The notes under the pieces were generated by a model. That model saw nothing but the letters and a program-made list of their open reading frames with translations, made no database searches and was not told the origin of the DNA. Below, piece after piece: positions 171 to 20,880 of a stretch of DNA of 29,764 nucleotides. This stretch comes from Pseudomonadota bacterium (GTDB taxonomy: Bacteria; Bdellovibrionota_B; Oligoflexia; Oligoflexales; CAIYRB01): positions 1 through 29,764 of the forward strand of contig JANOTL010000214.1 in the NCBI GenBank assembly GCA_031416315.1. The letters run 5' to 3'. Each line of letters starts with the position of its first letter. The first letter of the stretch is position 1. Both the position numbers and the translations under genes were made by a program.

Positions 171-1409
171 CTAGGAGACCGGCGCCCGTAGCCGCGCCAG
201 CGTCTCTTCATAGAGCGAAGACCGATGCCGATTCGCCGTGATTCCGGAGAAGCAGCGGTCGACGAACAGGTCGAGGCAACGCGCGAGCATGCCGATCGAG
301 TCCAAGACCAACGCTCCGGCGGCGCCTTCGAAGACGTTCAGATTCAGCTCGCCGTGCTCGAGCGAGGCTTTCACGGAGCGGTCGGCCCCTTCCACAAGAA
401 AACAACACTGGATCAGAGTCTCGGGCACGACCGGGTTCACCTTGCCCTTGAAGAAGGAGGAGCCTTCCTGCACCGCGGGCAAAGTAATCTCGCCGAAGCC
501 GGCTGAGGCCATCAGGCGCAGGTCTTTGCACATCTTGATCAGTGAGCCGCCAAGGAGCGAGAGGTTGGCGCTGACGGCTGCTAGCGAGTCGATGTTCTGC
601 GCGGCGTCGAACAGGTTCTCCGCGAGCGAGACGTCCCGTCCTGAAACATGGCGCAAGTGCTCGATGATCGACAGACGGTAGCTCTCCGACGCACCCTCGC
701 CCGAGCCGATGACCGTGCCGCCGAGGTTCAAGGAGCGCAGGCAGAAGATCGCCGCGCCGAGCTCGTGCTTGCGGCGGCCGATCATCGCGCCGATCGCCGA
801 GAAGCTGTCGCCGAGCAAGGTGGCCATGGCGTCCTGCATGCACGTGCGCGCGATCACCGAGACATCTCGGAATTCCACGGCTTTTTCCCAACTTGCCGCC
901 AGCAAACGGCCGAGGGCGGCGTCGAGCGCCTCCCAATGCATGAGAATTGCGAGGTTTTGCGCCGAATGGCAGACGTCGGCGGTCGATTGTGAGGCATTGA
1001 CGTGGAGCTTCGGATGGACCGGATCGTAGCTGCCGCAAGGATGCCCGACGCTCATGTTGGCGAGGTTGGCGATGACCTCGTTGACATTGACGTTGATCGC
1101 GATGCTGCCGCCGCCAGCAAACATGTCGGCGACGAATTGCTCGCGATGAAGGCCAGAACGCAGTTGGTCGCACGCTTCAGCAATCAGATCCCGGCGGGTC
1201 AAGTCGAGCACGCCCGAGCGATGGTTGGCGATCGCCGCGGCCTTTTTCACCAACGCGAGCGCTTCGATCATGACGGGAAAATCGGCGAGCCGCTTGCCGG
1301 AGAACGACATGTTGCTCAGGCAGCGCGCAGTGCGAGCGCCGTAAAGGGCGTTTGCTGGCAGCTCGACCTTACCTAAACTGTCTTCTTCGAAACGCGGCGG
1401 ACTCGTCAT
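171..1409 (-). CDS. Aspartate ammonia-lyase/class II fumarase superfamily lyase, divergent active site (412 aa)
   Basis: EEDSLG...ALYGART start, VNVNEVIAN, VHPKLHVNASQST, RTCMQDA, NLGGTVIG, KMCKDLRLMAS, signature GSSFFKGKVNPVVPE, GELNLNVFE. Start placed at ATG 1409 (MTSPPRF); the upstream part of the 582-aa ORF is antisense shadow of the ALDH. Confidence 0.88.
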   Translation of the reverse strand: MTSPPRFEEDSLGKVELPANALYGARTARCLSNMSFSGKRLADFPVMIEALALVKKAAAIANHRSGVLDLTRRDLIAEACDQLRSGLHREQFVADMFAGGGSIAINVNVNEVIANLANMSVGHPCGSYDPVHPKLHVNASQSTADVCHSAQNLAILMHWEALDAALGRLLAASWEKAVEFRDVSVIARTCMQDAMATLLGDSFSAIGAMIGRRKHELGAAIFCLRSLNLGGTVIGSGEGASESYRLSIIEHLRHVSGRDVSLAENLFDAAQNIDSLAAVSANLSLLGGSLIKMCKDLRLMASAGFGEITLPAVQEGSSFFKGKVNPVVPETLIQCCFLVEGADRSVKASLEHGELNLNVFEGAAGALVLDSIGMLARCLDLFVDRCFSGITANRHRSSLYEETLARLRAPVS

Positions 1410-1502
1410 AGCAAACGTTGCTAACAGTATCCGGTCGACATCGCCAGGCACATCACATACAAGTCGCCCTCGCACACGCAAAAAAGCAGAGGGCTCGGGT
1501 CT

Positions 1503-2975
1503 ATGGAAGCCGCAAGACGCGACTGGGCGATGAGCTGGGCGAGCTCGATCAAGACCTCCAGCGTCGAAGATGGCGCCGCCGGACCGCTCGTCGACACGAC
1601 GAATCCGGCCGACGGCAGCGTCATCGGCCGGATCCGCGAAGCCGGCCGCGAAACGGTCGACGCGGCGGTGGCTTCGGCGCGCGCCGGACTGGCGAGCGTC
1701 GCCTGGGCGTCCATGGCGCGACGCGAGCGCGGCGCGCGACTCCAGGCGATCGCCAGGCTCATCCGCGAGCATCATGCGGAGCTCGCGACGCTCGAGACGC
1801 TGGACAACGGCAAGCTCTATGTCGAGGCATGGGACGACGTCGCCGAGACCGCCGAAGTCTTCGACTATTATGCGGGCTGGGTCGACAAGCTCTACGGCGA
1901 AACGGTCCCCGTCGACCACGGTTACGTCAACTTTACGACGCGCTCTCCGATCGGCGTCTGCGCGTTGATCGTGCCGTGGAATTTTCCGCTACTCCTTTTG
2001 GCGTGGAAGTTGGCGCCGGCGTTGGCGATGGGAAACACTGTCGTCGCGAAGCCGGCGCTGGAAACGTCGCTGAGCACGGCGCGCCTGTGGGAAATCGTGG
2101 CGGCGGCGAAGATTATCCCGCCCGGCGTCTTCAACCTCGTGCTGGGCGGCGCCGAAACCGGCGAGCTTTTGAGCCGTCACCCCGAGATCGACAAGCTTTC
2201 CTTCACGGGCAGCACGGCGGTCGGCCGAAAGGTCGTGGCCGGCGCTGCGGGCAATCTCAAGCAGTTGAGCCTCGAGCTCGGCGGCAAGTCGGCGAACTTG
2301 ATCTTCGCCGATGCGCCCGATCTTTCTGCGGCGATCCTCCGCTCGTTCACGGCGATGTTCTCGCACAAAGGCGAAAAGTGCTCCGAGCCGACGCGGCTCT
2401 TGGTCGAGGCGCCGCACTACGAGGAGGTCGTTCAACGCCTCGCAGCGCTCGCCGAGGCCGTCGTCTGCGGCGACCCCTTCGATCCGCGCTCGACGCAAGG
2501 GCCGCAGTGCACCCAAGCACAACTGGAGAAATGCCTGCGTTACGTCGCCATAGGTCGCGACGAGGGCGCACGCCTCGTCGCCGGCGGCCGGCGCGACGAG
2601 GGCGCCGGTAACGCCCGCGGCTGGTTCATGCGTCCGACGATTTTCGCCGACGTCGCGAAGGCCTCGCGCTTGGCGCGCGACGAGATCTTCGGGCCCGTGC
2701 TCGTCGTGCAAAGATTCGCTACCGAGGACGAGGCCGTGGAAATGGCGAACGACACCGACTACGGCCTCGCCGCCGGCCTTTGGACCAGAGACGTCTCGCG
2801 CGCGCATCGCGTCGCCGAGCGCCTCGAGGCCGGCATGGTCTTCGTCAATCGCTACGGCTGCTATGACCTCGCCAGCCCCTTCGGCGGCTGGAAACAGAGT
2901 GGGTGGGGGCACGAGATGGGCCTGCATTCGCTCGCCGCCTATACGAAGCTGAAGTCCATCTGGATCAAATATTAG
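1503..2975 (+). CDS. NAD(P)+-dependent aldehyde dehydrogenase
   Basis: IVPWNFPL, VVAKPA, FTGSTAVG, LELGGKS (catalytic Glu), catalytic Cys in HKGEKCSEP, EIFGPV, YGLAAG, PFGGWKQSG. Start could be 1503 or 1530. Confidence 0.95.
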   Translation: MEAARRDWAMSWASSIKTSSVEDGAAGPLVDTTNPADGSVIGRIREAGRETVDAAVASARAGLASVAWASMARRERGARLQAIARLIREHHAELATLETLDNGKLYVEAWDDVAETAEVFDYYAGWVDKLYGETVPVDHGYVNFTTRSPIGVCALIVPWNFPLLLLAWKLAPALAMGNTVVAKPALETSLSTARLWEIVAAAKIIPPGVFNLVLGGAETGELLSRHPEIDKLSFTGSTAVGRKVVAGAAGNLKQLSLELGGKSANLIFADAPDLSAAILRSFTAMFSHKGEKCSEPTRLLVEAPHYEEVVQRLAALAEAVVCGDPFDPRSTQGPQCTQAQLEKCLRYVAIGRDEGARLVAGGRRDEGAGNARGWFMRPTIFADVAKASRLARDEIFGPVLVVQRFATEDEAVEMANDTDYGLAAGLWTRDVSRAHRVAERLEAGMVFVNRYGCYDLASPFGGWKQSGWGHEMGLHSLAAYTKLKSIWIKY

Positions 2976-2993
2976 GCTATCAGGAGCTTCCCC

Positions 2994-3839
2994 ATGCAGG
3001 TCCCAGGATTCGACGCGGCGGCCGCCTCTGCCTCCCGCCCGCGGCTCGGCTCGGCAAAGGAGCTGGTCGATCTCGAGCGTTACCCGCTTGATGATCTCGG
3101 CTCGCCGCGAGGCATGGCCTTGCTCGCGCTCTGCCGCGAGCAACTCGCCACGATGGGCGTCGTCATGCTGCCCGATTTCGTCACCGACGCGGCGCTGCGC
3201 ACGATGACGACGGAAGCGGCGCGCGTCGCGCCCCTCGCCTACCGTTCGGACGTCGTCGGCAATCCCTATCTTGAGCCGGTCGCCGCGGGTTTCCCCGACG
3301 ACCATCCGCAGAGCATGGTGGAGCGAACGACGCTCGGCGCGGTCGCCTACGACGAAATCCCCGAGGACTTCGCCTTACGGCGCCTCTATGAGTGGGACCA
3401 GATGCTCGTTTTCCTCGCCGCCGCGCTCGGCCAACCGGCGATTTTCCGCTACGCCGACACCTTGGGCGCGCTCAACCTCGCCGTCATGCTGCAAGACGAC
3501 TATCTGCGATGGCACTTCGATCAAACCGACTTCGTCGTGTCTTTGGCCCTGCAAGAAGCCGAAGCCGGCGGCGACTTCGAGTATGTGCCGATGATTCGGG
3601 GCGAAGGCCGCGAGAACTTCCCCAAGGTGCGCCAGGTCCTGCTCGGCGACGCCGCCTCGGTGCATCGGCTCCCGGTGACCCCTGGCGCGCTGATTCTGTT
3701 CGCTGGGCGCCACTCGCTGCATCGCGTGACGCCGATTCGTGGCGAGCGTCCCCGCCTGATGGCGCTCCTCGGCTATGACACGAGACCGGGCGTCGTGAGC
3801 TCGGAGCACTTACGTTACATGAGGTATGGCCGCTCATGA
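2994..3839 (+). CDS. Fe(II)/2-oxoglutarate oxygenase, BesD/HalD-like fold, hydroxylase-type HxD triad
   Basis: AGGAG RBS. WHFD (HxD), GGDFEY, PGALILF, HSLHRVTP (distal His) and a downstream R for 2OG binding. Stop overlaps the next start (ATGA). Confidence 0.8.
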   Translation: MQVPGFDAAAASASRPRLGSAKELVDLERYPLDDLGSPRGMALLALCREQLATMGVVMLPDFVTDAALRTMTTEAARVAPLAYRSDVVGNPYLEPVAAGFPDDHPQSMVERTTLGAVAYDEIPEDFALRRLYEWDQMLVFLAAALGQPAIFRYADTLGALNLAVMLQDDYLRWHFDQTDFVVSLALQEAEAGGDFEYVPMIRGEGRENFPKVRQVLLGDAASVHRLPVTPGALILFAGRHSLHRVTPIRGERPRLMALLGYDTRPGVVSSEHLRYMRYGRS

Positions 3840-4582
3840 TCCAACTCGAAGCCGTCGCAAAAAGTTACGGCAAAACGGTGGCCCTGCAGCCCCTAACCCT
3901 TGACGTGCCGCGGGGCGAGACGACCGTGCTCCTCGGACCGAGCGGCTGCGGCAAGTCGACGCTCCTACGCATTATCATCGGCTTGGTCGTGCCCGATTCC
4001 GGCCGGGTCCTGATCGACGGCCGGCCGCTGACGGCGGCGAGCCTCCTCGAGGAGCGCCGCCGCATGGGCTACGTCATTCAGGAAGGCGGCCTTTTCCCGC
4101 ATCTCACGGCCTACGACAACGCCTCTTTGGTGGCTCGGCACCTGGGCTGGAGCGAAGCGAAGATCGAGGCTCGCGTCGGCGAGCTGACGGCATTGACGCA
4201 GCTGCCGAGCGCTACGATGGAGCGCTTTCCCAGCGCCTTGTCCGGCGGCCAGCGCCAAAGAGTCAGCCTGATCCGCGCCTTGATGCTCGATCCCGACATT
4301 CTCCTGCTCGACGAGCCGCTCGGCGCTTTGGACCCGCTGATCCGGGCCGACCTGCAGGAAGACTTGCGGCGCATCTTCGCCGTTCTGCGCAAGACGGTCG
4401 TGATCGTGACGCACGACATCGGCGAAGCGGGCTTCCTCGGCGATGCCGTCGTAATGCTGCGCGACGGCCTTATCCTCCAACGCGGCGCGCTCGAGGAGCT
4501 CGTCAGGGCGCCGGCCGATCCCTTCGTGTCGCGCTTCATCGCGGCGCAGCGACTGCCAGCTTACGTACCCACCCTTTCGTGA
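3836..4582 (+). CDS. ABC transporter ATP-binding subunit, osmoprotectant (OpuBA/OsmV-like) class
   Basis: Walker A GPSGCGKST, MGYVIQEGGLFPH, LSGGQRQRV, Walker B LLLDEPLGALDP, VTHD. Confidence 0.95.
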   Translation: MIQLEAVAKSYGKTVALQPLTLDVPRGETTVLLGPSGCGKSTLLRIIIGLVVPDSGRVLIDGRPLTAASLLEERRRMGYVIQEGGLFPHLTAYDNASLVARHLGWSEAKIEARVGELTALTQLPSATMERFPSALSGGQRQRVSLIRALMLDPDILLLDEPLGALDPLIRADLQEDLRRIFAVLRKTVVIVTHDIGEAGFLGDAVVMLRDGLILQRGALEELVRAPADPFVSRFIAAQRLPAYVPTLS

Positions 4583-4602
4583 AGAATTTGGAGTGACCGA
4601 CG

Positions 4603-6123
4603 ATGGGAATGCGTTCTATCGCGCTCGTATGCGGGCTTTTCGGCTTTGGCCTCGGCGCGCGAGCCGGGGACGCGAGCGTCTCGGTCGGCTCGAAGCGCTT
4701 TACCGAAAGTGTGATCCTCGGTGAGATCGCGGCGGAAGCCGCTCGGACCCTGGGTCTCGCGGTCACCCACCAAAAGGAGCTGGGGGGGACGCAGCTCCTG
4801 TGGAAAGCCTTGCTCCGCGGCGACATCGACGTCTATCCGGACTATACCGGGACGATCATCGACGACACGCTCGCCGGCAAGAAGATCCCGGACTTCGGCG
4901 CGCTCGAGGCGGAGCTCGCCAAGCTCGGCGTCGGTGTCACCCGCCCCCTGGGCTTCAACAATACCTATGCGCTCGGCATGCCGCGTAAAATGGCAGAGGC
5001 GCTTCAGATCAAGACGATTTCCGCGCTCGCTCGGCATCCGGAGCTTCCATTCGGCTTCTCTCACGAGTTTCTCGACCGCGCCGAAGGCTGGGAGTCCGTG
5101 CGCAAGAAGTACGCGTTGCCGCAGCAAGGTGTGCAAGGCATCGAGCACGAGCTCGCTTACAAGGCGATCGCCGGCGGTCAGATCGCGGTGACCGACCTCT
5201 ATTCGACCGACGCGGAGATCGCCTATCACGACCTCGTGACGCTGGAAGACGACCTCCGCCACTTCCCGAGATACGACGCCGTCTTCCTGTACCGCCTGGA
5301 CGCTGCGGAAAAACATCCCGAGCTGATCGCGAAGCTCAGATCCCTCGCCGGCGAGATCCCGGAGAGCCGCATGATCGCGATGAACGCTCGCGCCAAAATT
5401 GAGAAGATCGGCGAAGCGCTCGTCGCCCAGGACTTCACCCGCGAGCTTTGGGGCGATGCCGCCAAGACGCCGAAAGCCGCCTCGGCGCGCGACGGCATGT
5501 GGGGGGAAATCTCCCGCCGCGCGAAAGAGCACCTGTTTTTGGTCCTCGTCTCGCTCATCGCCGCGGTCGTCGTGGCGTTGCCGCTCGGCGTCTTCGCCGC
5601 GCGCCGCCCGCGCGTCGGCCAAGTGATCCTGGCGATCTCGGGGATTTTCCAGACGATCCCGTCGCTGGCACTCCTGGTGTTTCTGATTCCGACCTTGGGA
5701 ATCGGCTCGCCGCCGGCGATCGCGGCGCTCTTCGTTTATAGCCTTCTTCCCGTCGTCCGCAACACTTACACCGGCCTGCGCAGCATTCCGGCGCCGTTGA
5801 TGGAGTCGGCCGCCGCGGTCGGCTTACCCGCCGGTGCCCGTCTGTGGCGCATCGAGCTGCCGCTCGCGGCGCGCTCGATTCTCGCTGGCATCAAGACGTC
5901 CGCCGTCATCAACGTCGGGACCGCGACTTTGGGCGCACTGATCGGCGCCGGGGGCTTCGGTCAACCGATTCTCGTCGGCATCCGTCGCGACGACTTCGGC
6001 TTGATCCTGCAGGGCGCGATCCCGGCGGCGGTTTTGGCGCTGCTGATGCAGGGGCTCTTCGAGGTCGCCGAACGCTTCGTCGTCTCGAAGGGCCTGCGGT
6101 ATGAAGCCAAGGGCCTGACTTGA
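4603..6123 (+). CDS. Fused glycine betaine/choline-family substrate-binding protein (N-terminal) and permease (C-terminal)
   Basis: Signal peptide; binding-domain motifs VGSKRFTESVILGE, GDIDVYPDYTGT, GFNNTYAL, FPRYDA; TM region with QTIPSLALL, EAA loop ESAAAVGL, IELPLA, GALIGAGGFG. Confidence 0.93.
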   Translation: MGMRSIALVCGLFGFGLGARAGDASVSVGSKRFTESVILGEIAAEAARTLGLAVTHQKELGGTQLLWKALLRGDIDVYPDYTGTIIDDTLAGKKIPDFGALEAELAKLGVGVTRPLGFNNTYALGMPRKMAEALQIKTISALARHPELPFGFSHEFLDRAEGWESVRKKYALPQQGVQGIEHELAYKAIAGGQIAVTDLYSTDAEIAYHDLVTLEDDLRHFPRYDAVFLYRLDAAEKHPELIAKLRSLAGEIPESRMIAMNARAKIEKIGEALVAQDFTRELWGDAAKTPKAASARDGMWGEISRRAKEHLFLVLVSLIAAVVVALPLGVFAARRPRVGQVILAISGIFQTIPSLALLVFLIPTLGIGSPPAIAALFVYSLLPVVRNTYTGLRSIPAPLMESAAAVGLPAGARLWRIELPLAARSILAGIKTSAVINVGTATLGALIGAGGFGQPILVGIRRDDFGLILQGAIPAAVLALLMQGLFEVAERFVVSKGLRYEAKGLT

Positions 6124-6137
6124 GCTGGACCGACGAA

Positions 6138-6869
6138 CTACCAAGCGTAGCCGATGCCGAGGTTCCCTTCCGGGATCGGACGCGTCGACAAGCGCGTCTC
6201 GGGCAGGTCGCGGATCATTTGCTCGTAGTCGGCGCGGGCGTTCGGGTCATTGCTGTCTACTGACACGGTGCGCTGGAAGTTCAGCGTGATGCTCGCTCCG
6301 AGGCTTAGGGTCAGCTTTTGCTCGAAGAAGGTCCAGCGATTGCCAAAGCCGCCGACCAAACCGTGGCGCACGTCACTGACGAAATCCGTCTCATCGCCCG
6401 GATCCGACGTTGGTAGGGTCACTGGAACTGCGTCCCCGGCACCGCCTTCTTCCGTGTGGCGGTTCGCATGGCTGCTGATGCGCGTATAGCTGTAGCCGCC
6501 TTTCACGAACCAGCCGTGCATCGCCCTCGGCCGCTCCCACCGCGTGATGTTCCACCGGAGGCGGATCGCGTCGAGCTTGTGGCGCTCGCCCGGCCAGAAG
6601 TCTTCGCGGCGATAGGACGCGGTCGGCTCCGACGGTCCATGGACGTTGAACGTCCCCGTCCATATCTCGGGGCCCGTCGACACGACGTCTTTGGCGTTGA
6701 AGTCGGCGAGCGCGCCCCATTTGCTGGTCGCGACGTCGTTGATGTTGTGCTCGAACGACGCCGAGGTCGGGGCCACCGGGTCGAGCTCGGCAACGATGTT
6801 CCTGGCGATCTCTGCAGCCTGAGCGGTGCCGGCAATGACGATCGTTAGAGTGGCGATGATTGTACGCAT
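6138..6869 (-). CDS. Putative outer-membrane beta-barrel protein (243 aa)
   Basis: AGGAG-containing RBS before ATG 6869; signal peptide MRTIIATLTIVIAGTAQA; amphipathic strands (WFVKGGYSY, LTLSLGASITLNF); C-terminal beta-signal NLGIGYAW. Confidence 0.7.
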   Translation of the reverse strand: MRTIIATLTIVIAGTAQAAEIARNIVAELDPVAPTSASFEHNINDVATSKWGALADFNAKDVVSTGPEIWTGTFNVHGPSEPTASYRREDFWPGERHKLDAIRLRWNITRWERPRAMHGWFVKGGYSYTRISSHANRHTEEGGAGDAVPVTLPTSDPGDETDFVSDVRHGLVGGFGNRWTFFEQKLTLSLGASITLNFQRTVSVDSNDPNARADYEQMIRDLPETRLSTRPIPEGNLGIGYAW

Positions 6870-6927
6870 GCGGCCTCTTCTCCTCTTCAATGACGTGATC
6901 TGTGACCAGATCAAAGGTCTGGGAGAT

Positions 6928-7582: not shown

Positions 7583-10500
7583 GTGACTCAGCGACTTCTC
7601 GCAATTTGTGTTTCGCTCCTCATCTCTTGGTCGTTCGCCGCGACGGCAGAAGTAGGACCGCGCGACCCTTCACGCGCCGCTATCACCGAGCCCGGTCCCT
7701 ACCTATCGCGCCTTGCCTGGCGCGGGATTGAGGTGACCCTCGGCGCCGAGCGACCATTGGCCCTCGAGGCGAGCCGGATTTCACCGACCGAGCTGACGCG
7801 CATCGCCCTCGCATCGGACGTCCGCGTCGAGGACGCCGCCGAGAGCCTCGGCGAACACGTGCTCGCGCCGCGCGCCGCCGACCGGCGTGGCGGTCGACGG
7901 ACCGTCGACCTCGGTCTGACCCTGGCGACGCCGCCAAAGGGGATTCTCCAGCTCGTGCTTCGCGCGCTTCCGGAGCGCACGATTGTCGACCACCGCACCT
8001 TTCTCGTCTCGGACCTTCACCTGGTCGCCAAACACGGCGCCTTGGGCGAAACACAGGTCTGGGCCTTGAGCGCACGGGATGCCGGCTGGATCGCGGGCGT
8101 CGAGATCCGTGCGATCACGGCCGCAGGTACCGAGGCCGCCGCGTGCACGACGGGAGCGGAGGGGCACTGCGAGCTGCCGGCGCGCGCCGGCGCGGCTCCG
8201 GCGGCGCTGACGGCCGTGAAGGGCGACGACCTGGCCTTCATCCGCTTGGGTCGCCACGAAGCCCGAAGGTCGAGCGCGGCGCAAGGCGCCTCCGAGCTGC
8301 ACGGCTCGGTCTTCGGTGATCGCGCCGTGTACGCGCCAGGCGAGACGGTCCACGTGGTAGGGATCGTTCGGGGCCCTACCCTGAAGGCTCCGCCGGCGAT
8401 CCCGGTCGAGCTCAGGCTCGAGGCGCCGGAGGGTCGACCGGTTCGGCAGCTTCTGGTGCGCACGAACGATGCCGGCCTCGCGACGATCGATTTTTCGATC
8501 CCACCGCTCGCCGCGAGCGGTAATTATGCGCTGGTGCTAACCGCCGGAGGCACGGAGCTCGACCGGACCGTTCTGCACGTGACCGACTTACGTCCGCCGG
8601 AGTTCGGGATCCAGTTCGGCGCGAGGACAGCCGTCTTCGAAGGCGCTGCGGCGGCGGAATTCGTGGTCATGGCGCGGTCGCTCGTCGGCCGCCTTTCCGG
8701 CCGGCTCGAGGCCGTTCTCGACTGCGAGCTCGCGCCGCTCGACACGCCTGCGTTCACCAGCAAAGGGCTCGCGTTCGGCGACCTTCGAACGCCCGAACGC
8801 ACGGGCCCGCCTCTGCGCGTCACGGCGTTGCTCGGGCCGGACGGCCGCGGGACCCTCGCCTGTCCCGTCGCCGACGTGCTGACGCTCGGCCGGCCCGCGC
8901 GCGTCACGGCGCACTTGGCGCTTCGGGGCGGGGCGGGCGGTGGCGTGCATCGTCGACGCGCCGTCGCGATCTCCAGCCCTAGGTCGCGCTATCTGGGGCT
9001 GGCGCCTGCGCAGGCGCGTCGCTCGCGCGATGGTGCCGTCGGCGTCCGCGGCGTGATCCTCGACCGTGAGGGGCGGCCGGTTGACGCCGACGGTCCCGTG
9101 ACGCTCGAGCTCTATCGGATCGATCGCGGGTCCGACGGGATGCCGGCCCGGTTGGTAGCAGACGCCCGCCGCAGTGTCCGCGTCGAAGCCGGCGCGTTTA
9201 CCGCCAGCCTTCGCGCGGCGCGGCGCGCCGACGGCTACCTGGTGCGGGCGACGCTCGGCAGCGCGCGCGCCGAGATCGTCCTGCCGGGCGAGGTGGCAGA
9301 CCACCGTTGGTTGCGAGCTGCGGCGTCGGGCGACGAAAATGGGCCGACCGAGCCCGAGACGATCGCCATCCGGATCGTGCGCGGCAAGGCGAGCGACCAA
9401 GGTCCTGAGGTGACGTTTGTGGCGCCATTTTCCGGGCGCGCGCTCCTGACCTATGAGGCGGGCAACCGCATCACGCACGCATGGAAAGATGTCAAAACGG
9501 GAACGGTCTCGTGGCGTCCCGCGCCTCAGACGCCGGTCGGCGATCTTCGCGCGACCGTCTATCTCGTCGGTCCGCCCGCCGGAAACCACGGGGCTCGCGG
9601 CGGTTTGCGACGGGCGCTCGGAAGCGGCGCATCAGGCTGGCCGGAGGACGCCGGCCCTCGCGAGCTGACGATCAAGGCGCCCAACACCTTGCTGCCAGGG
9701 GGCAACCTCGACCTCGTCGTCGACGTCAACGCGGCCCAGGCCGGAAGCTTCGTCGTCGTGACGGTCGTCGACGAGAGCCTCGATTCGCGGGCGCTCGACC
9801 AACCGCGGCTCCCGGGCGAAGCCACGCTGGACGGCGCGCCGCGCGCCGTCGCGACGATCGACAGCGCCGGGCTCCGGATCCCTGCCGACGATGAGGGGGG
9901 ACGCGCGCCGAGGGGAGAGCTCCTTGACGATATCGCCGGATCACCGCTCGCGGCCCGCAGGTACGCGGATTGGTCGAGAGTCGTGCGGGCTGGGCCGGAC
10001 GGCCGGACAGTCCTGCGCTTCGCCCTGCCGCGCTACCAAGGGCGCTTTCGGGTGGGGGCCGTCGCCTTCGGGAATGCGTGGCTCGGTCGCGGCACGACCG
10101 TGGTGACGACGACCGATCCGCTCGGCCTCTCGGCGCGAATTCCGGCCGTCCTCCGGATCGGCAACGAGGTCGAGGTGCCGGTCTCCGTCTCGAACCCGAC
10201 CAGTCAAGAGCAGACGATCGAAGTCGAGCTGCGCGCCGACACGTTACCCGACGCCGTGACCGACAGCGCGGACGTCGTCCAGATCGACGGCGAGGCCCGC
10301 CGCCCGCTGAAGCTCGCGCCTCGCGAGCGTCGCGAGACGAGCTACCGCGTGCGGGCCGTCCGGCCGCGCGGTCGGGTCCGATTCTTCGCGTCGGCGCAGC
10401 TAGGACAGACGCTTTCGCACTTCACTGTGGACACCGCGGCGCGGCCAGCTGCGCGCGGGATCGTGACTTGGGCAAGGTTCACGGTTCCGTCCCATGAGCT

Positions 10501-11959
10501 CGACCTGACGAAGCAGCTGCCGGGAGCCGGCGGGCGGGTGGGTTTCTGGATGACTGCCGACCCGCTCGCCTCGGCTCGCAGCCTGGCCTCGCGCGTCCTC
10601 CTCGGCAGCGCCGGAGCCCTCGAGGAGACCGCGGCTGCCGTCTGGCTGCGCGCCGCGCTTGGGACGCGGCTCCCTTTCGTCGCGCCACTCGCGGCGGTCG
10701 ACGGGAAGGCTGGGCCGGGTGCCGTGCGGGAGGGGCTCGAGCGGCTGTTGGCCATGCAGACGCTCGACGGCGGGTTCGCAGTGTTCCCGAGCGGCGTCAC
10801 CGCCGACCCCGGGGGCTCAGCCTTCGCGACGCACGCGCTAGTCGACCTCGGAAAACGCGGTCACCGCGTTCACCCGGCCCGCGTCGACGCCGCGCTCGCG
10901 TACCTCGAGACTTCGGCTGCGCTCGCCGAGTCGGGCACTGAGCCGGCGGCGGCTTATGCGCACTACGTTCTCGCCCTCGCCGGCCGTCCGGCGGCAGAAG
11001 GCGCGCGTAGCTTGCTCGCGCGGCTCAAAGAGCGCCCGCCAGGAGACGGGGCGCTCGAGGCAACGGCGCTTGTCGAGCAAGCCGCGCGCCTTGCCGGCGA
11101 CCCGACGGCTGCTGCCACAGTCGCTGGGCGCTCGCCCGACGCGGCCCGCGCCCGCGCCGTCCACCTCCTGGCGCAAGGGCCTGAAGCGTTCGGCGGGCCT
11201 GCGTTCGTCGAGGAGGTCGCGAGCGGCGCGCTGCGCGCTGATTCCCTCCCCTCGCCCTCGGAGCTGGTGTTTGCGCTGATCGGCCTGGAGGCCGCCCGGC
11301 TCCCCGCCAGCAAGCCCTCAGGAACGCTCGTCGTCGACGGGAAGCTCCGCGAGCCGCACGCCGAGGGCGACGATGGCGAGAAGGCGTGGGTCCTCGGGAC
11401 CGAGGCCCCGGGGTCAAAGGCGGTCGCGCTTATAGACCCTGCCGCCGCGCCCGGTACCGTCCTCGAGATGACGAGCGAGGCCGGTCCGCTGCCGCCCGAC
11501 GCCGCGACGGGACCAAAAGACCTCCGCGTCGCGGTAGTCGTTCGACGGTTGGACGGTGCCGCGCTCGACCCGGCGACTCTTCGCCTTGGCGAGAAGCTAG
11601 CCCTCGACGTCGAGGCGCGACGCGACGGCGGTGCGACGGGGGCGAGACCGGTCGAGGTCGTGCTCCACCTCCCAGCGAGCCTCGATCTGGTCAGCGTGCG
11701 TCCAGCCCCGGACGAGATGCGCGGGCTTCCCGAAGGCGGCGCGGCGCTCGACGACGTGACGATCTTTCCGGACCGCGTGATAACGCGTGCGGCCCTAACG
11801 CCGCAGGGCGCCGTCCGCTTTCGAATCCTCGTGCGTGCGTCGTTCTCGGGTCGATCGTCGGGGCCTGTAGCCGAGGCGCGCCTGCTCCCGCGGCAGGACA
11901 CCGACGTTCCCGCACGTGCGTCGTCCGCCCCTATCGTGGTCGCAGGAGACGGGGAGTGA
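7583..11959 (+). CDS. Alpha-2-macroglobulin family protein (MG domains), lacking the thioester motif
   Basis: Signal peptide; VSDLHLVAK; FGDRAVYAPGETVHV (MG2); VVDES; LPRYQGRFRV; PAVLRIGNE; LLAMQTLDGGFAVF (TED-like); YAHYVLALAG. The thioester position reads GALEET instead of GCxEQT. Confidence 0.85.
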   Translation: MTQRLLAICVSLLISWSFAATAEVGPRDPSRAAITEPGPYLSRLAWRGIEVTLGAERPLALEASRISPTELTRIALASDVRVEDAAESLGEHVLAPRAADRRGGRRTVDLGLTLATPPKGILQLVLRALPERTIVDHRTFLVSDLHLVAKHGALGETQVWALSARDAGWIAGVEIRAITAAGTEAAACTTGAEGHCELPARAGAAPAALTAVKGDDLAFIRLGRHEARRSSAAQGASELHGSVFGDRAVYAPGETVHVVGIVRGPTLKAPPAIPVELRLEAPEGRPVRQLLVRTNDAGLATIDFSIPPLAASGNYALVLTAGGTELDRTVLHVTDLRPPEFGIQFGARTAVFEGAAAAEFVVMARSLVGRLSGRLEAVLDCELAPLDTPAFTSKGLAFGDLRTPERTGPPLRVTALLGPDGRGTLACPVADVLTLGRPARVTAHLALRGGAGGGVHRRRAVAISSPRSRYLGLAPAQARRSRDGAVGVRGVILDREGRPVDADGPVTLELYRIDRGSDGMPARLVADARRSVRVEAGAFTASLRAARRADGYLVRATLGSARAEIVLPGEVADHRWLRAAASGDENGPTEPETIAIRIVRGKASDQGPEVTFVAPFSGRALLTYEAGNRITHAWKDVKTGTVSWRPAPQTPVGDLRATVYLVGPPAGNHGARGGLRRALGSGASGWPEDAGPRELTIKAPNTLLPGGNLDLVVDVNAAQAGSFVVVTVVDESLDSRALDQPRLPGEATLDGAPRAVATIDSAGLRIPADDEGGRAPRGELLDDIAGSPLAARRYADWSRVVRAGPDGRTVLRFALPRYQGRFRVGAVAFGNAWLGRGTTVVTTTDPLGLSARIPAVLRIGNEVEVPVSVSNPTSQEQTIEVELRADTLPDAVTDSADVVQIDGEARRPLKLAPRERRETSYRVRAVRPRGRVRFFASAQLGQTLSHFTVDTAARPAARGIVTWARFTVPSHELDLTKQLPGAGGRVGFWMTADPLASARSLASRVLLGSAGALEETAAAVWLRAALGTRLPFVAPLAAVDGKAGPGAVREGLERLLAMQTLDGGFAVFPSGVTADPGGSAFATHALVDLGKRGHRVHPARVDAALAYLETSAALAESGTEPAAAYAHYVLALAGRPAAEGARSLLARLKERPPGDGALEATALVEQAARLAGDPTAAATVAGRSPDAARARAVHLLAQGPEAFGGPAFVEEVASGALRADSLPSPSELVFALIGLEAARLPASKPSGTLVVDGKLREPHAEGDDGEKAWVLGTEAPGSKAVALIDPAAAPGTVLEMTSEAGPLPPDAATGPKDLRVAVVVRRLDGAALDPATLRLGEKLALDVEARRDGGATGARPVEVVLHLPASLDLVSVRPAPDEMRGLPEGGAALDDVTIFPDRVITRAALTPQGAVRFRILVRASFSGRSSGPVAEARLLPRQDTDVPARASSAPIVVAGDGE

Positions 11960-12206: not shown

Positions 12207-15200
12207 ATGCGCCGGAGATTTCTTTCCACTGTCATGCTCGTTGCCTCATTTGGGGCACAGATGGCATGCCAACGAGAAGAAACACAAGCCGCATACGGTG
12301 AAGACTACACGCCGGTCGCGCCCGCAGGCAGTACGGGTAGCGTTCGGTCGGGAGTGCAGCCAGGCGGCTCGGGGGGTGGTGGAGGCCGTACCTTCGTCGC
12401 GATCAGCCCAATCACTACGCCCAGCACGCCTGACCCCGGCTCTGCGGAAAATTCGAGCTCCGGAAACGCTGCGGCAAGCAGCAACTCCGTGGCGTCTCCG
12501 CTCATCAACGCCCCGGCAGCCGCAACTAATAGCTCCAACTTCGCCGTCGAGGTCGCCAGCGAAGACTTCGTCCAATACCGCTACGCCATCGTCTACGGCG
12601 AAGAGAGTTGTAGCTCGGCGACCATGTCGGCTTGGATCAAAGGCTCGACGCCGATCGCCGTGAAAGACATCGGAGGGGAAGGCCCCCGCAAGCTTTGCGT
12701 CATCGGCCGTAACGTCTACGGTCACGAGACCGCCGTCGAATATGAATGGACCAAAGACACGACGCCGCCGACCGCTACCGTCGTCGACGCGGCCGACGGA
12801 GTTGCCAGCGCCTTCGCCGCGACTGTTGCCGGAGCCGGCGTCACAAGCTACCGCTACGCTCATCTCGTGGACGCTGGCGACTGCGCGGCGGCGAGTTACT
12901 CCGCCTGGGTAGAGGTCGTGACCACGGTCACCGCAGCCTTCGCGACGAGCGGCAGCCAGCTCCTCTGCGTCCAAGGCCGCGACGCCGCGGGCAATGAACA
13001 GGTGGGGCCGACCGCCTATCTGAAACCTCACGTCGCGCTTTCCGGGACGCCCTTGGCTTTCTCAAACGACACGGTGCTCGACGTCTCCGTGAGCGGAGTC
13101 GGCGTTGCCGAGTACCGTTATTCGCTCCTGGCTGGCGCTGCGAGTTGTGACGGCGCGACGTATTCGGACTGGATGGCGGTCGAAAACAAGATTACCGCCG
13201 CCACCGGCATCGACGGCGCTAAGCTCCTCTGCGTCGTCGGCCGCAGCGCGGCAGGCGCAACGAGCTACATCGTCGCGTCGCACGCGTGGATCAACGACAG
13301 CAGCCCGCCAGACGTGCCGACGCTCTCCGGTACGCCCTCTAACCCGAGTAAGTTCACCACGCTCGACGTGACGGTGAGCGGCAACGACGTATCTCAGTAC
13401 CGGTTTGCTGTGATGACAGGCGCCGCTGATTGCTCTGCTGCGAGTTACGGCGTCTCGACACCAATCGCGGTCAAGATCACGGCCGCGACCGGCGTCGACG
13501 GCGCGAAACGACTCTGCGTGAAGAGCCTCGACCGCGCCGACAATGAGCAGTCGACTTCGACTCAGTTTGCCTGGACGCAAGATTCGACTGCGCCGACGGC
13601 CACGCTGACGGGCGCCCCGGCCGCAAGCACGACCACCGTGGACACCGCCGTATCGGTCACCGTTGGACCGGCTGGTGACGCCACCGAGTACAAATACGCT
13701 TTGCTTAGCGGCACCGCGAGCTGCAGTGGCGCTGCCTATCCCGCCACTTGGGTTGCCGTCGGCACTGCGATTTCGACGAGCCTCGGCGCCGACGGCCTCA
13801 AAACGATTTGCGTCATTGCGCGTGATGCCCTAGCCAACGAGCAGCAGACCGCGACCGCGCGCACCTGGACCAAGGACACTACCCCGCCGGTCACGACACT
13901 CGCCGGCACGCCTGCGAGCCTCTCCAATGTGACGACGCTCAACGTTTCGATCACCGACACTGACACCGACCAGTACAAGTACGCGGTGACGACGGGCCCC
14001 AACTGCATCGGCGCGACCTACGGCGCCTTCCGCTCGAAAGCTACCAACATCACAGACCTGCTCGGCGCCGACGGCGGTTACCGCCTGTGTGTGATCGGGA
14101 AAGACGTCGTCGGCAACCTCCAGGCGGTCGCGGCCGAGTATTCCTGGACCAAGGATACGACCCCGCCCAACGCCGCGGCGCTCACTCTGACTGGAACGCC
14201 GACGGATCCGTCGAACGTGACCGCAGTCGCAGTCACCGTGAACGGCGCCGACATTTTCAAGTACAAGTACAAGATCGGCGTCGACGCATCGACCTCCTGC
14301 AGCAGCTCGACCGGTTACAGCGCTACCGAGTACGACCGCGCCACCGAGACGATCGCAAGTGCCGTCTCCGGACTCGCCGATGGCTCCCTTGAGCTTTGCG
14401 TCTGGGGAAAAGACGGCGCTGACAACTTCCAGGCGTTGGCCGACGCCAGAAGCTTCGTCTGGGTAAAGGACACGATGGCGCCGACCGCGACCTTGTCTGG
14501 CCAGCCCGGAGATCCGTCGCTTGTGACGACACTCAACGTCGACGTCAACGGCACCGCAGCAAGCGACGTATACCGCTACAAGCTCGGCGCTGAGGGCTCG
14601 ACCGACTGCTCGAGTGCGACTGGCTACTCGGGCACCACGATCGCCATCGGCACCAACATTACCGATAATATCTCAGGCCAGGCCGACCAGCGCTTCAAAA
14701 TCTGCGCCGTGGCGATTGACCTAGCCGGCAATATTCAGCCGTATTCGAGCGCGACCACCTACTCCTGGACGAAAGACACGACGCCGCCGACCGTGACTCT
14801 CGGCAACCTACCGGCCAGCCTTGCCAACGCCACGACGCTCAACGTCTCGATCACTGATTCGACAACCGACCAATACAAACACTTCATCACCACTGCTGCC
14901 AATTGCGCCGCCGCCACTTACGGCGCCTACCGCGCCAAGGCCACCAACATCACCGATACGCTCGGCGCCGACAGTGCGATGCGGCTCTGCGTGATTGGCA
15001 AAGATGCTTTGGGCAATGAACAAACGACGGCGACCGAGTATGCCTGGACTAAAGACACGACCCCCCCAACCGCAGCCGCGCTCACCCTGGCGGGCACGCC
15101 AGCCGACCCGACGAACGTAACGACGCTCGGCGTCACCGTCAATGGCGCCGACGTCGCCAAATATAAGTACAAGGTTGGCGCCGATGGCTCGACCACCTGT

Positions 15201-17048
15201 AGTAGCTCGACCGGATACAGCGCGACTGAATACGACCGCGCCACTGAGACTATTACGGCGAGCGTAAGCGGCATCGGCGACGGCTCCGTCGAGCTCTGCG
15301 TGTGGGGTCGCGACGCCGCTGGCAACTACCAGGTGCTCGCCGACACCCGCAGCTTCGTCTGGGTGAAGGACACCGTCCGTCCGACCGCCGCGATCTCGGG
15401 CCAGCCCGCGGACCCGTCTTCGGCGGTTGCACTTAACATCGACGTGAGCGCCGATGGCGCAAGCGATACCTACCGCCACAAGGTCGGCGAAGAGTCGACG
15501 ATCGACTGCGCCAACGCGACCGGCTACTCGGGGGCGACTTCAGTCGCGACCAACATCACCGACGGTCTTACCGGATACGCCGACGGCCGAGTCAAACTTT
15601 GCGTTGTCGCCAAGGATCCGGCCGGCAACGAGCAACTGCTTTCGAGCGCCACCACCTACGCCTGGACAAAGGACAACAATTCGCCGGCGCCAGGGAGCTC
15701 GGGCACGATCACTCCATCGGGCGTCGACTTGACCTCGCTCACGCTCACCTGGACGAAGGCGACGGATCTCGTCACGGCCCAGGCGAGCCTGCAATACAAA
15801 GTCTACCGCTCGGCGACCAACAACATCGACACCATTGGTAACATGGACGCTTGCGAGAGCGCCCTTAGCTGCACGGTGATGAATGGCGGCTTCACGACCA
15901 ACATTGGCACCTACGCGGTGACCGGCCTGAGCTCCAACACCCAATATTACTTCAACGTTCGGGTCAAAGACGGCGTCGGCCGCGAGGCGGTTTACACGAT
16001 GTTGAGCCAGCGTACGCCGCAGGCGATCCACCTCGCTTACGCGGACGTTACCAATGGGCGCGTCAAGTCCGCGAAGACTGCCACCTCGGTCACCAGCTTC
16101 ACCGTCGAAACGGCCGAAACGGTGGCCACCCCCGAGGCGATCGCGTTGGCGATCGACGCGAACAAGAAGGCCAACATTTCCTATCGCTCGGGCAACGACC
16201 TCCGCTACCTCACCAACAAATCCGGCTCCTGGGTTGCGGTGCTCGTCGACGCCGGCTTCGCCCAGTCGAACACGGACATCCAGATCGCCTCGAACGGCTA
16301 CGTCCACGTGACATTTTACCGCTTCGACAGCAACAAGGACTGGAAGCACACCTACCATGACGGGACGAGCTGGCTCGCGACCGCAAATAAAATCTGGAAC
16401 GGCAACGGCAGCGCCGTGAAGGGCTTCTACGCCGCCATGGTTTTGGACTCGAACGACAAGGTCCACGCCGTCGGTCATGATTCGACCAACAAAGACTTAA
16501 TTTACAACACCGACGCCGGCGGCTCTTGGGCGAACGCGAACATGACGATCGTCGACAACGGCGCCAACCCGCCGATCGTCGGCGAATTTTCCTCGGTGGC
16601 GCGCGACGCATCGAACAACATCTACGCCGCCTATTACGACCTGACGAACGGCGACCTGAAGTACGCGAAGAAGACCTCGGGCACTTGGGGAGCGGCGGAG
16701 ACCCGCGAGTCAGCCAACAACGTCGGCCAGTACACCGGAATCGCGATCACTCCCGACAACCGCATCCACATCGTCTTCTACGACGTCACCAACGGCGACC
16801 TGCGCTACGTCTGCCATAACGGAACGAGCTGGCAGGCAGGAGTCGTTGTCGACGGCGCGGGCATCGACGCGGGCAAGTACGCCTCGATCGTCGGGGGCCT
16901 GGACAACAATGTTCACGTTGCTTACTACGACGCGACCAACCTCAATTTGAAGTATGGTAAAGGGAGCTGCGGCGGCTCTTGGGTGCTTTCTACCGTCGAC
17001 TCAACGGGCGACGTCGGCACATGGACTGATATCGCCCTTGACCGCTAA
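12207..17048 (+). CDS. Large surface lipoprotein: 11 Cys-paired Ig-like repeats, FN3 domain, C-terminal beta-propeller (1613 aa)
   Basis: Lipobox-like AQMAC; repeats bounded by WTKDTTPP, each with Y(K/R)Y...C...LCV.G.D..GN; FN3-like LTLTWTKATD...YKVY...VTGLSSNTQYYFNVRVKD; propeller blades such as HIVFYDVTNGDLRY and HVAYYDATNLNLKY. Confidence 0.88.
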   Translation: MRRRFLSTVMLVASFGAQMACQREETQAAYGEDYTPVAPAGSTGSVRSGVQPGGSGGGGGRTFVAISPITTPSTPDPGSAENSSSGNAAASSNSVASPLINAPAAATNSSNFAVEVASEDFVQYRYAIVYGEESCSSATMSAWIKGSTPIAVKDIGGEGPRKLCVIGRNVYGHETAVEYEWTKDTTPPTATVVDAADGVASAFAATVAGAGVTSYRYAHLVDAGDCAAASYSAWVEVVTTVTAAFATSGSQLLCVQGRDAAGNEQVGPTAYLKPHVALSGTPLAFSNDTVLDVSVSGVGVAEYRYSLLAGAASCDGATYSDWMAVENKITAATGIDGAKLLCVVGRSAAGATSYIVASHAWINDSSPPDVPTLSGTPSNPSKFTTLDVTVSGNDVSQYRFAVMTGAADCSAASYGVSTPIAVKITAATGVDGAKRLCVKSLDRADNEQSTSTQFAWTQDSTAPTATLTGAPAASTTTVDTAVSVTVGPAGDATEYKYALLSGTASCSGAAYPATWVAVGTAISTSLGADGLKTICVIARDALANEQQTATARTWTKDTTPPVTTLAGTPASLSNVTTLNVSITDTDTDQYKYAVTTGPNCIGATYGAFRSKATNITDLLGADGGYRLCVIGKDVVGNLQAVAAEYSWTKDTTPPNAAALTLTGTPTDPSNVTAVAVTVNGADIFKYKYKIGVDASTSCSSSTGYSATEYDRATETIASAVSGLADGSLELCVWGKDGADNFQALADARSFVWVKDTMAPTATLSGQPGDPSLVTTLNVDVNGTAASDVYRYKLGAEGSTDCSSATGYSGTTIAIGTNITDNISGQADQRFKICAVAIDLAGNIQPYSSATTYSWTKDTTPPTVTLGNLPASLANATTLNVSITDSTTDQYKHFITTAANCAAATYGAYRAKATNITDTLGADSAMRLCVIGKDALGNEQTTATEYAWTKDTTPPTAAALTLAGTPADPTNVTTLGVTVNGADVAKYKYKVGADGSTTCSSSTGYSATEYDRATETITASVSGIGDGSVELCVWGRDAAGNYQVLADTRSFVWVKDTVRPTAAISGQPADPSSAVALNIDVSADGASDTYRHKVGEESTIDCANATGYSGATSVATNITDGLTGYADGRVKLCVVAKDPAGNEQLLSSATTYAWTKDNNSPAPGSSGTITPSGVDLTSLTLTWTKATDLVTAQASLQYKVYRSATNNIDTIGNMDACESALSCTVMNGGFTTNIGTYAVTGLSSNTQYYFNVRVKDGVGREAVYTMLSQRTPQAIHLAYADVTNGRVKSAKTATSVTSFTVETAETVATPEAIALAIDANKKANISYRSGNDLRYLTNKSGSWVAVLVDAGFAQSNTDIQIASNGYVHVTFYRFDSNKDWKHTYHDGTSWLATANKIWNGNGSAVKGFYAAMVLDSNDKVHAVGHDSTNKDLIYNTDAGGSWANANMTIVDNGANPPIVGEFSSVARDASNNIYAAYYDLTNGDLKYAKKTSGTWGAAETRESANNVGQYTGIAITPDNRIHIVFYDVTNGDLRYVCHNGTSWQAGVVVDGAGIDAGKYASIVGGLDNNVHVAYYDATNLNLKYGKGSCGGSWVLSTVDSTGDVGTWTDIALDR
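13866..15662 (+). repeat. Intragenic tandem duplication of a three-module (ABC) block, 900 + 897 bp
   Basis: WTKD Trp codons at 13866, 14766 and 15663 bound two copies sharing CSSSTGYSATEYDRATETI, KATNITD.LGAD and RSFVWVKDT. Confidence 0.9.
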
Positions 17049-17060
17049 GAAAGGAGCGCC

Positions 17061-17642
17061 GTGCACGAACTACGTCATTACCTTCTGCGCTCGCTCACGA
17101 TAGCGGCAAGCCTTGCGGTCTCCGGCGCCGCGTTCTCGCAAGGTGGAGCCGGCACCGCCGATCAAATCATCGTGAGCGGCAGCGTCTTTTACGTGAGCGA
17201 CGCGAGCCAGCGCGACGGCAAAGACCTTCCTGGCGGCACAACGACCTACCTCTCCGTCGCCGGCCAGTACAACGTCCCGAAGTATTTCGCCGGAATTGGC
17301 CTGATTTATCAAAAAAATGACACCGGGGAGACCCAGAGCGAGACGGCCGTCGGCCTCAAGCTCGAGCTCTTTTATTACGAGTGGCCGTTCTACCTCGAGT
17401 TCGTGCCGTTCTCCGTGCTGCACCAGGAGTTCGCGAATCGCTCGATCGAGTCCCGCGACGGCAACATGACCCTCTTCGGTCTTGGTGTGCGCGCCGACCT
17501 CTTCAGCTGGCTCTTCTTCGACGGCAGCTTCAAGATCCGGACGAGTACATACAAGAAGGAGGATGGGGTCGAAATGCCGGAGCCGATCGTCCGGACCGAG
17601 AAGATGCCCTACCTCGGCCTCGGCCTAAAATTTCCGATCTGA
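17061..17642 (+). CDS. Small outer-membrane beta-barrel protein (193 aa)
   Basis: AAGGAG RBS plus GTG; signal peptide ending AFS; alternating strands (IIVSGSVFY, FAGIGLIY, FGLGVRADL); C-terminus PYLGLGLKFPI. Confidence 0.75.
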   Translation: MHELRHYLLRSLTIAASLAVSGAAFSQGGAGTADQIIVSGSVFYVSDASQRDGKDLPGGTTTYLSVAGQYNVPKYFAGIGLIYQKNDTGETQSETAVGLKLELFYYEWPFYLEFVPFSVLHQEFANRSIESRDGNMTLFGLGVRADLFSWLFFDGSFKIRTSTYKKEDGVEMPEPIVRTEKMPYLGLGLKFPI

Positions 17643-17645
17643 GCC

Positions 17646-18548: not shown

Positions 18549-18599
18549 TCCGACGCGGGCCTGAATCAAGGGCATTGGCGGCCGAGCGCGACGGGTCGT

Positions 18600-18626
18600 T
18601 CAAGGTTGCCGCGAGTTTGCCGACAA
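18600..18626 (+). promoter_or_regulatory. Putative sigma28-type promoter, possibly giving a leaderless mRNA
   Basis: TCAA-N15-GCCGACAA ends 4 nt before ATG ATG (18631/18634); no Shine-Dalgarno visible. Confidence 0.55.
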
Positions 18627-18630
18627 GCAA

Positions 18631-19941: not shown

Positions 19942-20119
19942 CGCGTCAAAGCCGTCGGCGCTTACCGTGAAGGGCCGACGGCTGATGGAGTGCGGGGCTG
20001 GTCCCGCTGCCCGCCGCTTTGTAAACGACTCGGGCTTCGGCTTGCGTCGGCTTGTCGCCTTGGTACTCTGTCTGCATATCTTCAGGCACATTTCCCGATT
20101 CAGAACCAAGGAGCCAGGT

Positions 20120-20653: not shown

Positions 20654-20663
20654 ATCTATCTTG

Positions 20664-20825: not shown

Positions 20826-20880
20826 CCCCCGCCGTCACCCTCTCGATCGCGACCCTGATCGTGGCGCCGAGCGCCCGAAT

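Follow-up and report, generated by a model that had tools for sequence, protein, structure and literature searches.

A five-gene cluster at positions 171 to 6,123 of a 29,764-nucleotide contig from a bacterium of the Oligoflexia (JANOTL010000214.1, hereafter the window) encodes an aspartase-fold lyase, an aldehyde dehydrogenase (ALDH), an Fe(II)/2-oxoglutarate (2OG) oxygenase and a two-gene ATP-binding cassette (ABC) importer. It probably degrades N,N,N-trimethylhomoserine (homoserine betaine), either free or derived from diacylglyceryl-trimethylhomoserine (DGTS), a membrane lipid of algae and fungi of which it is the head group, to fumarate and trimethylamine. The gene set, synteny, gene replacements and active-site residues were observed, whereas every substrate and product was inferred. 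Briefly, the betaine, or else its glyceryl ether, would enter through the ABC importer, after which the oxygenase would hydroxylate C4 and the resulting gem-diol or hemiacetal would collapse to trimethylaspartate 4-semialdehyde, freeing glycerol if the substrate is the ether. The ALDH would then yield trimethylaspartate, from which Ser317 of the lyase would abstract the C3 proton, expelling trimethylamine and delivering fumarate to the tricarboxylic acid (TCA) cycle. The chances of the free betaine and of the glyceryl ether being the oxygenase substrate are about even. A first-pass annotation of this DNA offered two readings. One of them, catabolism with release of the onium group by the lyase, finds support in synteny and in two unrelated lyase folds whose amine pocket has changed.

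Gene neighbourhoods were compared for the best 80 of 420 oxygenase relatives in the genome collection, to which all counts of 80 refer. Beside the oxygenase, an aspartase-like lyase was found in 39 loci and the ALDH in 38, and a 3-methylaspartate ammonia-lyase-like (MAL-like) gene in 18; by neighbour clustering the two lyase types never occur together (0/80). The loci fall into lyase only (24), lyase with ALDH (15), MAL-like gene with ALDH (18), ALDH only (5) and none of these (18). One or other lyase accompanies the oxygenase in 57/80, most often co-oriented with it and either directly adjacent or one gene removed. The trio of oxygenase, ALDH and a lyase recurs in Oligoflexia, Melainabacteria and Myxococcota, and the pair of oxygenase and lyase in Binatia; because the enzyme set recurs across those lineages, its grouping exceeds chance. 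On a quick tree, the loci with the MAL-like gene form one clade of 17 plus L006, so that one or two lyase swaps, not 18, are implied. Within the phylum, the ALDH orthologue is present in 16 of 104 genomes, all 16 of which also hold an oxygenase homologue (19 in total), and the importer in 12, of which nine have neither oxygenase nor ALDH. Since the importer mostly occurs without these enzymes, the conserved unit is oxygenase, ALDH and lyase, with a variable importer. This three-enzyme core is common to soil and freshwater bacteria of several phyla, the loci stemming largely from soil, peat and freshwater lineages; among 401 sampled genomes of Alphaproteobacteria (three candidates scored in each), one had the ALDH orthologue and no marine Roseobacter version was seen. 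The proposed co-occurrence of all five genes thus held for the three enzymes. It failed for the importer, which was rejected as a core gene: the window-type binding protein-permease is syntenic in only 4/80 loci and the complete set is repeated in just one other of the 80 (L053).

Window genes were called as open reading frames (ORFs), with families assigned by Pfam and subfamilies by NCBIfam curated cut-offs; the lyase, ALDH, ATPase and fused importer protein all scored under the named-family cut-offs, and the oxygenase had no NCBIfam match. The lyase (positions 171–1,409, minus strand; Pfam Lyase_1) is a predicted trimethylaspartate trimethylamine-lyase of 412 residues, modelled with a mean predicted local distance difference test (pLDDT) score of 89. 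Its residues were mapped on AspB, and 28 full-length linked orthologues were compared. The catalytic serine of AspA/AspB, the window base Ser317, and both carboxylate sets are present: AspB S140, T141, T187, S318, S319, K324 and N326 (window S142, T143, T189, S317, S318, K323 and N325) are kept in 28/28. The amine-binding set T101/N142/H188(Q), in which T101 presumably belongs to the amine site, is missing; AspB T101, N142, H188 and M321 correspond to I103, A144, C190 and F320 in the window. As described for AspB (PMC11744663), T187, M321, K324 and N326 line the alpha-carboxylate pocket, while H188 and N142 contact the amine. Among the orthologues, T101 is Ile in 27, N142 is Ala in 27, H188 is Cys in all 28 and M321 is Phe or Tyr in all 28. 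In 120 Bacillales-type homologues, H188 is Cys in 120 and T101 is Ile in 113, with N142 kept in two (mostly Ser). The lyase scored 390 bits against a cut-off of 510 for PRK12273, 329 against 681 for aspA and 269 against 665 for fumC, and the genome holds a separate fumarase/aspartase-family paralogue on contig C9 that is 35% identical to it.

Pocket type was set against partner genes for 72 scored lyase matches, 4 of 76 having been dropped as fragments. A pathway partner lies in the locus for 35/38 matches with an I/x/C pocket, compared with 0/23 canonical T/N/H(Q) and 0/5 T/N/C matches, a weak control given that canonical loci mostly have 1.5-kb flanks and several other loci are near-copies; of the remaining six, four are second copies and two are T/x/C matches whose loci do hold a partner. 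Lyase matches in Leisingera and Rhizobium were rejected as pathway enzymes, being canonical aspartases. The T/N/C pocket marks an aspartase-like subfamily with no link to the pathway (L122, L124, L131, L135 and L136). In L108, L109, L111 and L138 the core is followed, some 4 kb downstream from where the lyase begins, by a second aspartase-like gene of intermediate pocket type (L/N/C at T101/N142/H188), possibly for another N-substituted aspartate. On the Peribacillus sp. R9-11 plasmid NZ_CP133764.1 (L187:7986-10556), an altered lyase runs on into a BCCT carrier within one 856-residue open frame beside a transposase; a deletion has probably joined the two ends of the cluster.

The MAL-like protein of other genomes has undergone a comparable change. 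The base K331, the metal ligands D238/E273/D307 and C361 are kept in 17/17 sequences, whereas the amine-site residues Q73 and Q172, the latter taken here to belong to that site, are each Ser in 16/17; its NCBIfam score, 244 bits, is under the cut-off of 286. Two unrelated lyase folds, both with fumarate-type products, have therefore lost the same thing, their hydrogen-bond partners for the amine. Because both folds keep the base and the carboxylate or metal sites while losing the amine-binding residues, the lyase substrate would, as far as sequence can tell, be an aspartate with a fully alkylated nitrogen. That the pathway ends with conversion of an N-substituted aspartate to fumarate is very likely.

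The enzyme of the proposed first step (2,994–3,839, plus strand; Pfam HalD, E 5.6e-10) is a BesD/HalD-fold Fe(II)/2OG hydroxylase, predicted to act at C4 of trimethylhomoserine or its glyceryl ether to give the aldehyde. It has the fold, the HxD...H triad (H174-F175-D176...H243) and the 2OG arginine (R254) of this class; H174, D176, H243 and R254 are invariant (117 sequences for H174 and D176). The top fold match of its model (pLDDT 94) is HalB, with Z 23.2, a root-mean-square deviation of 3.0 Å over 232 aligned residues and 15% identity, and the fold is that of free amino-acid C-H hydroxylases. An ESM Atlas search returned HalD-family clusters only. Identity as a halogenase was rejected on the HxD motif, which replaces the HxG/A site with room for chloride.

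This enzyme can be exchanged. A reciprocal scan with the lyase as query gave 41 metagenome loci, of which 12 carry the oxygenase (11 with a stricter filter), 17 a zinc-dependent alcohol dehydrogenase (Zn-ADH) and none both; in the latter 17, the Zn-ADH stands directly after the same ALDH. The core is also carried by cultured Bacillaceae. Plasmid NZ_CP146259.1 of Priestia megaterium has lyase-ALDH-Zn-ADH, and plasmids of Vibrio pelagius (NZ_AP025505.1) and Ensifer adhaerens (NZ_CP083351.1) have lyase, ALDH and an aldo-keto reductase (AKR), also found at L231; in one genome of the window's own order, the ALDH adjoins a Zn-ADH. Since the oxygenase is swappable for alcohol dehydrogenases, the product of step 1 is likely an aldehyde, formed at a carbon that bears oxygen, and working back from trimethylaspartate leads to trimethylhomoserine.

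The ALDH (1,503–2,975, plus strand; Pfam Aldedh), with trimethylaspartate 4-semialdehyde as its predicted substrate, forms a distinct subfamily. The catalytic E258 and C293, shared with BetB, are present in 36/36 linked orthologues, as are K289, E291, K292 and P296, which with C293 are invariant, and it has a K-G/A-E-K-C loop of its own. BetB models are its top NCBIfam matches, though under cut-off (483 versus 669 and 469 versus 593 bits), and it shows no betA linkage.

The likely but exchangeable importer consists of an ATPase (3,836–4,582, plus strand; Pfam ABC_tran), whose top NCBIfam match is ProV-type and under cut-off, and a fused binding protein-permease (4,603–6,123, plus strand; Pfam OpuAC and BPD_transp_1). 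Its binding-domain pocket (K31, F33, Y81, T84, F118, N120, Y122, R159, Y186 and Y200) is that of the Archaeoglobus fulgidus ProX type, with a cage of Y81, Y122, Y186 and Y200 plus N120 and a carboxylate site of K31/T84/R159. EgtUC is the top PDB match, but the EgtU switch G244 and F293/Y337 as described (PMC9732360) are absent, with F33, Y81 and F118 instead, and a Phe stands where EgtU opens its side-chain channel (PMC9732360). Ergothioneine import and catabolism were rejected on these determinants, and no ergothionase-like gene was seen among the annotated neighbours. Judged from its residues, the pocket favours a small ligand. Among the 38 loci with oxygenase and ALDH, 11 have a BCCT carrier and three an OpuA-type ABC system; Bacillales-type loci carry an OpuC-type ABC system or BCCT, Ensifer a peptide-type ABC system and Priestia a major facilitator superfamily (MFS) carrier. 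Betaine-class importers of some kind (BCCT, OpuC-type ABC) recur beside the core.

Some loci carry optional neighbours that, by family, look like glycerol-ether-cleaving modules, and because the glycerol ether of trimethylhomoserine is deacylated DGTS, they would speak for a lipid origin. In eight of the 17 loci with a Zn-ADH there is also an iron-dependent alcohol dehydrogenase (Fe-ADH), along with an enolase-superfamily protein most similar to acid-sugar dehydratases. Most of these loci have a second ALDH too, which is AldA-like above cut-off in L104 and like succinate-semialdehyde dehydrogenase, under cut-off, in L119. With this set, a glyceryl ether could be oxidized to the corresponding glycerate ether, followed by elimination of the alkoxide. 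In Priestia and Vibrio, a short-chain dehydrogenase/reductase (SDR) and an FGGY kinase accompany a flavin adenine dinucleotide (FAD) enzyme whose top PDB match is alkyl-dihydroxyacetone phosphate (alkyl-DHAP) synthase (E 8e-51); such synthases form the glycerol ether bond, as reported (PMC3509576). Ensifer has DhaKL and an SDR of the GolD/DthD family nearby, possibly by chance. No genes of these modules occur in 78/80 oxygenase loci, a finding consistent with, but no demonstration of, direct cleavage of the ether by the oxygenase. A unit of SIS regulator, SDR, alkyl-DHAP-synthase-like FAD protein and FGGY kinase (L183:1-4087, L184:15173-19822, L188 and L189) is widespread, with 30 records in a plasmid collection, including Escherichia coli, Enterococcus and Streptomyces, and may serve glyceryl-ether catabolism in general. 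Near the oxygenase in L035, L053, L060, L076 and L129 (more weakly in L064) lies an M24 protein whose nearest solved relative is DddP (257 bits, cut-off 600); it could act on a beta-onium propionate, e.g., beta-alanine betaine or the head group of DGTA, a lipid whose name in full is diacylglyceryl-hydroxymethyl-trimethyl-beta-alanine.

Several observations weigh against trimethylhomoserine breakdown as the cluster's function. The compound itself was deduced from chemistry. The Fisher p of 7e-7 for the lyase swap is overstated, resting on few events, and several Bacillales loci are near-copies. In 24/80 loci (Binatia) the oxygenase and lyase occur without the ALDH, and no ALDH orthologue was found in 5/5 such Binatia-type genomes (best matches 43–45%). 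Neither lyase is present in 23/80 oxygenase loci, some of which are cut short, while others lie beside formaldehyde-activating or GcvT-type genes, so that the oxygenase family has other roles; more distant oxygenases stand in other gene contexts. The importer pocket is the same in pathway-linked and unlinked copies, so that its ligand may be other than the pathway substrate, and in 2/2 further plasmids checked the alkyl-DHAP-synthase-like module is present but the core is not. Locus L036 combines the oxygenase with Fe-ADH, enolase and AKR, and its genome yielded no altered lyase.

This alphaproteobacterial locus (L036:377-11067) encodes the oxygenase, a peptide-type ABC system, the AKR, the Fe-ADH, an enolase-like protein 56% identical to the Bacillales one and, by eye, a homocysteine-methyltransferase-like protein; it is perhaps a demethylating variant without lyase. 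Lyase-free relatives of the oxygenase adjoin Fae or GcvT/DAO genes in L069, L077, L064 and L072, a context that suggests N-demethylation in part of the family.

The same chemistry might serve another leaving group, with fumarate and X formed from a 2-X-4-hydroxybutyrate whose N- or S-substituent is a different one (homoserine bearing one or two N-methyl groups, a sulfonium analogue or some bulkier N-unit). The pocket changes amount to lost hydrogen-bond partners of the amine and leave the number of methyl groups unspecified, and the peptide-type ABC system of Ensifer, the MFS carrier of Priestia and the DddP-like protein beside the oxygenase in five lyase-bearing loci would all agree with it. 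This alternative is nevertheless unlikely, considering that betaine-class importers recur, that the window has the full four-aromatic cage, that the glycerol-ether-type modules fit DGTS and that we know of no abundant natural sulfonium or dimethyl analogue of this skeleton. The head group (hydroxymethyl-trimethyl-beta-alanine) of DGTA, a lipid isomeric with DGTS, oxidized to a malonate before trimethylamine is eliminated, would require the same alcohol or ether oxidation, ALDH, betaine importer and glycerol-ether modules, and the DddP-like neighbour suits a beta-onium propionate. Both lyase folds, however, retain binding sites that fit a succinate-type dicarboxylate whose leaving group sits on the carbon adjoining one carboxylate, an arrangement that a malonate does not offer, and DGTA is mostly marine, whereas most of the loci belong to soil, peat and freshwater lineages, making this origin improbable.

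Lyases acting as ordinary aspartases or fumarases could be accommodated if the oxygenase cleaved a C4 onium compound (e.g., S-methylmethionine to aspartate semialdehyde and dimethylsulfide) or N-demethylated a betaine, as BesD-fold enzymes act on free amino acids and some lyase-free oxygenase loci adjoin Fae or GcvT/DAO genes. Yet an alcohol dehydrogenase could not replace such a step, and Zn-ADH or AKR occupy the oxygenase's place; residues for holding ammonia or water are gone from the lyase, canonical lyases lack a partner in 23/23 (a weak control, mostly with 1.5-kb flanks), and the genome has a separate lyase-family paralogue. Such a scheme is quite improbable. The other reading of the first-pass annotation, BetA-independent glycine betaine synthesis from choline with the lyase as an unrelated neighbour, could draw on the BetB models that top the ALDH's NCBIfam matches under cut-off, on a ProX-type binding protein and on a genome without betA above cut-off. 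It fails to give the lyase a role in 57/80 loci, loci with a substitute for the oxygenase still pair the lyase with the ALDH, and the ALDH, under the BetB cut-offs, has its own loop; this reading lacks support and is highly improbable. Degradation of trimethylhomoserine is the preferred reading.

As to the layout of the window, the spacings first described proved exact, with a divergent 93-bp region between lyase and ALDH (1,410–1,502), an 18-bp gap, a 4-bp overlap and a 20-bp gap. Likewise, no betA- or betI-type family match was obtained among the 18 window proteins scanned, as had been claimed, and the betA model gave no match above cut-off anywhere in the genome (93% complete). The lyase starts with ATG at 1,409, while a 582-residue ORF from 1,919 runs antisense into the ALDH. 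No sigma-70-like site was found in the 93-bp gap, and a promoter and terminator scan gave nothing above chance. The lyase, ALDH and oxygenase each have a single close copy in the genome, which, going by its relatives, probably belongs to the Oligoflexales. A search of sequencing runs listed no RNA run, and its lone DNA match (freshwater sediment, X1) is a possible source of the window, hence no support. Beyond the operon lie an unannotated convergent ORF of 258 residues (6,138–6,914, minus strand) and an alpha-2-macroglobulin-like protein of 1,458 residues (7,583–11,959, plus strand) in which the CxEQ thioester motif is missing by eye, encoded in a region whose GC content is near 72%, compared with 59–68% elsewhere. 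A run of likely surface proteins follows (12,207–21,963, plus strand), including a 1,613-residue Ig/fn3 protein, an NHL-repeat protein and a DUF1554 protein.

DGTS replaces phospholipids in bacteria and phytoplankton under phosphorus limitation (PMC4796936), and two papers treat it as a membrane lipid only (PMC10132767, PMC4796936). Homoserine betaine is the main osmolyte of Trichodesmium, and a 2021 preprint calls its metabolic fate unknown (10.1101/2021.03.10.434842); trimethylated homoserine has been measured in seawater, in a report that includes no uptake test (PMC13403184). Full-text literature searches, with most subscription journals outside their scope, found among the papers listed no description of DGTS head-group catabolism, no mention of trimethylaspartate and, in keeping with the first-pass annotation, no pathway with this gene set. 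We consider the catabolic pathway real and widespread, and it is apparently undescribed. We lean cautiously towards a broader proposal, in which it is the first bacterial breakdown of the DGTS head group, a new microbial trimethylamine source for soils and fresh waters, and modular. The modules would be three exchangeable first enzymes (Fe/2OG oxygenase, Zn-ADH and AKR), two convergent lyases (aspartase and enolase folds) and up to three ether-opening routes (oxidative cleavage by the oxygenase, dehydratase-type elimination and reversed alkyl-DHAP-synthase-like chemistry). If true, genes, intermediates and cultured test strains can be named for the fate of homoserine betaine, and a new route to trimethylamine is at hand. 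Nature would also be offering C-N lyases that act on trialkylamine leaving groups, built on two scaffolds which biocatalysis groups engineer to that end.

Among known systems, AspA/AspB (PDB 1J3U, 3R6Y, 3OCF) share the fold, the serine base of the SS loop and both carboxylate sites with the window lyase, which, like the 401-residue AspB chain in 3R6Y, lacks the C-terminal part; the window enzyme differs in T101/N142/H188/M321, scores under the aspA and fumC cut-offs and is tied to an ALDH and an oxidizing enzyme. The MAL-like replacement, a gene absent from the window, keeps the base and metal ligands of 3-methylaspartate ammonia-lyase (PDB 1KKO, 1KCZ). Its Ser residues at Q73 and Q172 form a natural counterpart of the amine-broadening mutant MAL-Q73A, which is reported to accept alkylamines (PMC6973171). 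BesD, HalA, HalB, HalD and the lysine hydroxylase 7JSD resemble the window oxygenase in fold (Z 21.6–23.2), and its HxD...H triad is that of the hydroxylase, though identity is only 14–18%. Those enzymes functionalize a free amino acid biosynthetically, whereas the window oxygenase stands in a catabolic context and is predicted to oxidize an oxygen-bearing carbon to an aldehyde. With EgtU and A. fulgidus ProX, the binding domain has in common the Cluster F-III aromatic cage and the Lys/Thr/Arg carboxylate site; EgtU G244 and F293 are F33 and Y81 in the window, as in ProX, and the window binding domain lies N-terminal to the permease.

Trimethylamine is released in catabolism by ergothionase, CutC, CntAB and gamma-butyrobetainyl-CoA lyase. 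As in the proposed route, a betaine is imported and trimethylamine eliminated, and ergothionase is likewise a repurposed ammonia-lyase. These enzymes have other folds and substrates, and we know of none that combines oxidation of an alcohol via the aldehyde to the acid with subsequent fumarate formation. The bet operon (betT/betA/betB/betI) and choline monooxygenase offer a parallel in the combination of an importer, an alcohol-oxidizing enzyme (dehydrogenase or oxygenase) and an ALDH. The window differs from them in having neither BetA nor BetI, in an ALDH that scores under the BetB cut-offs, and in a terminal lyase that would make the route catabolic.

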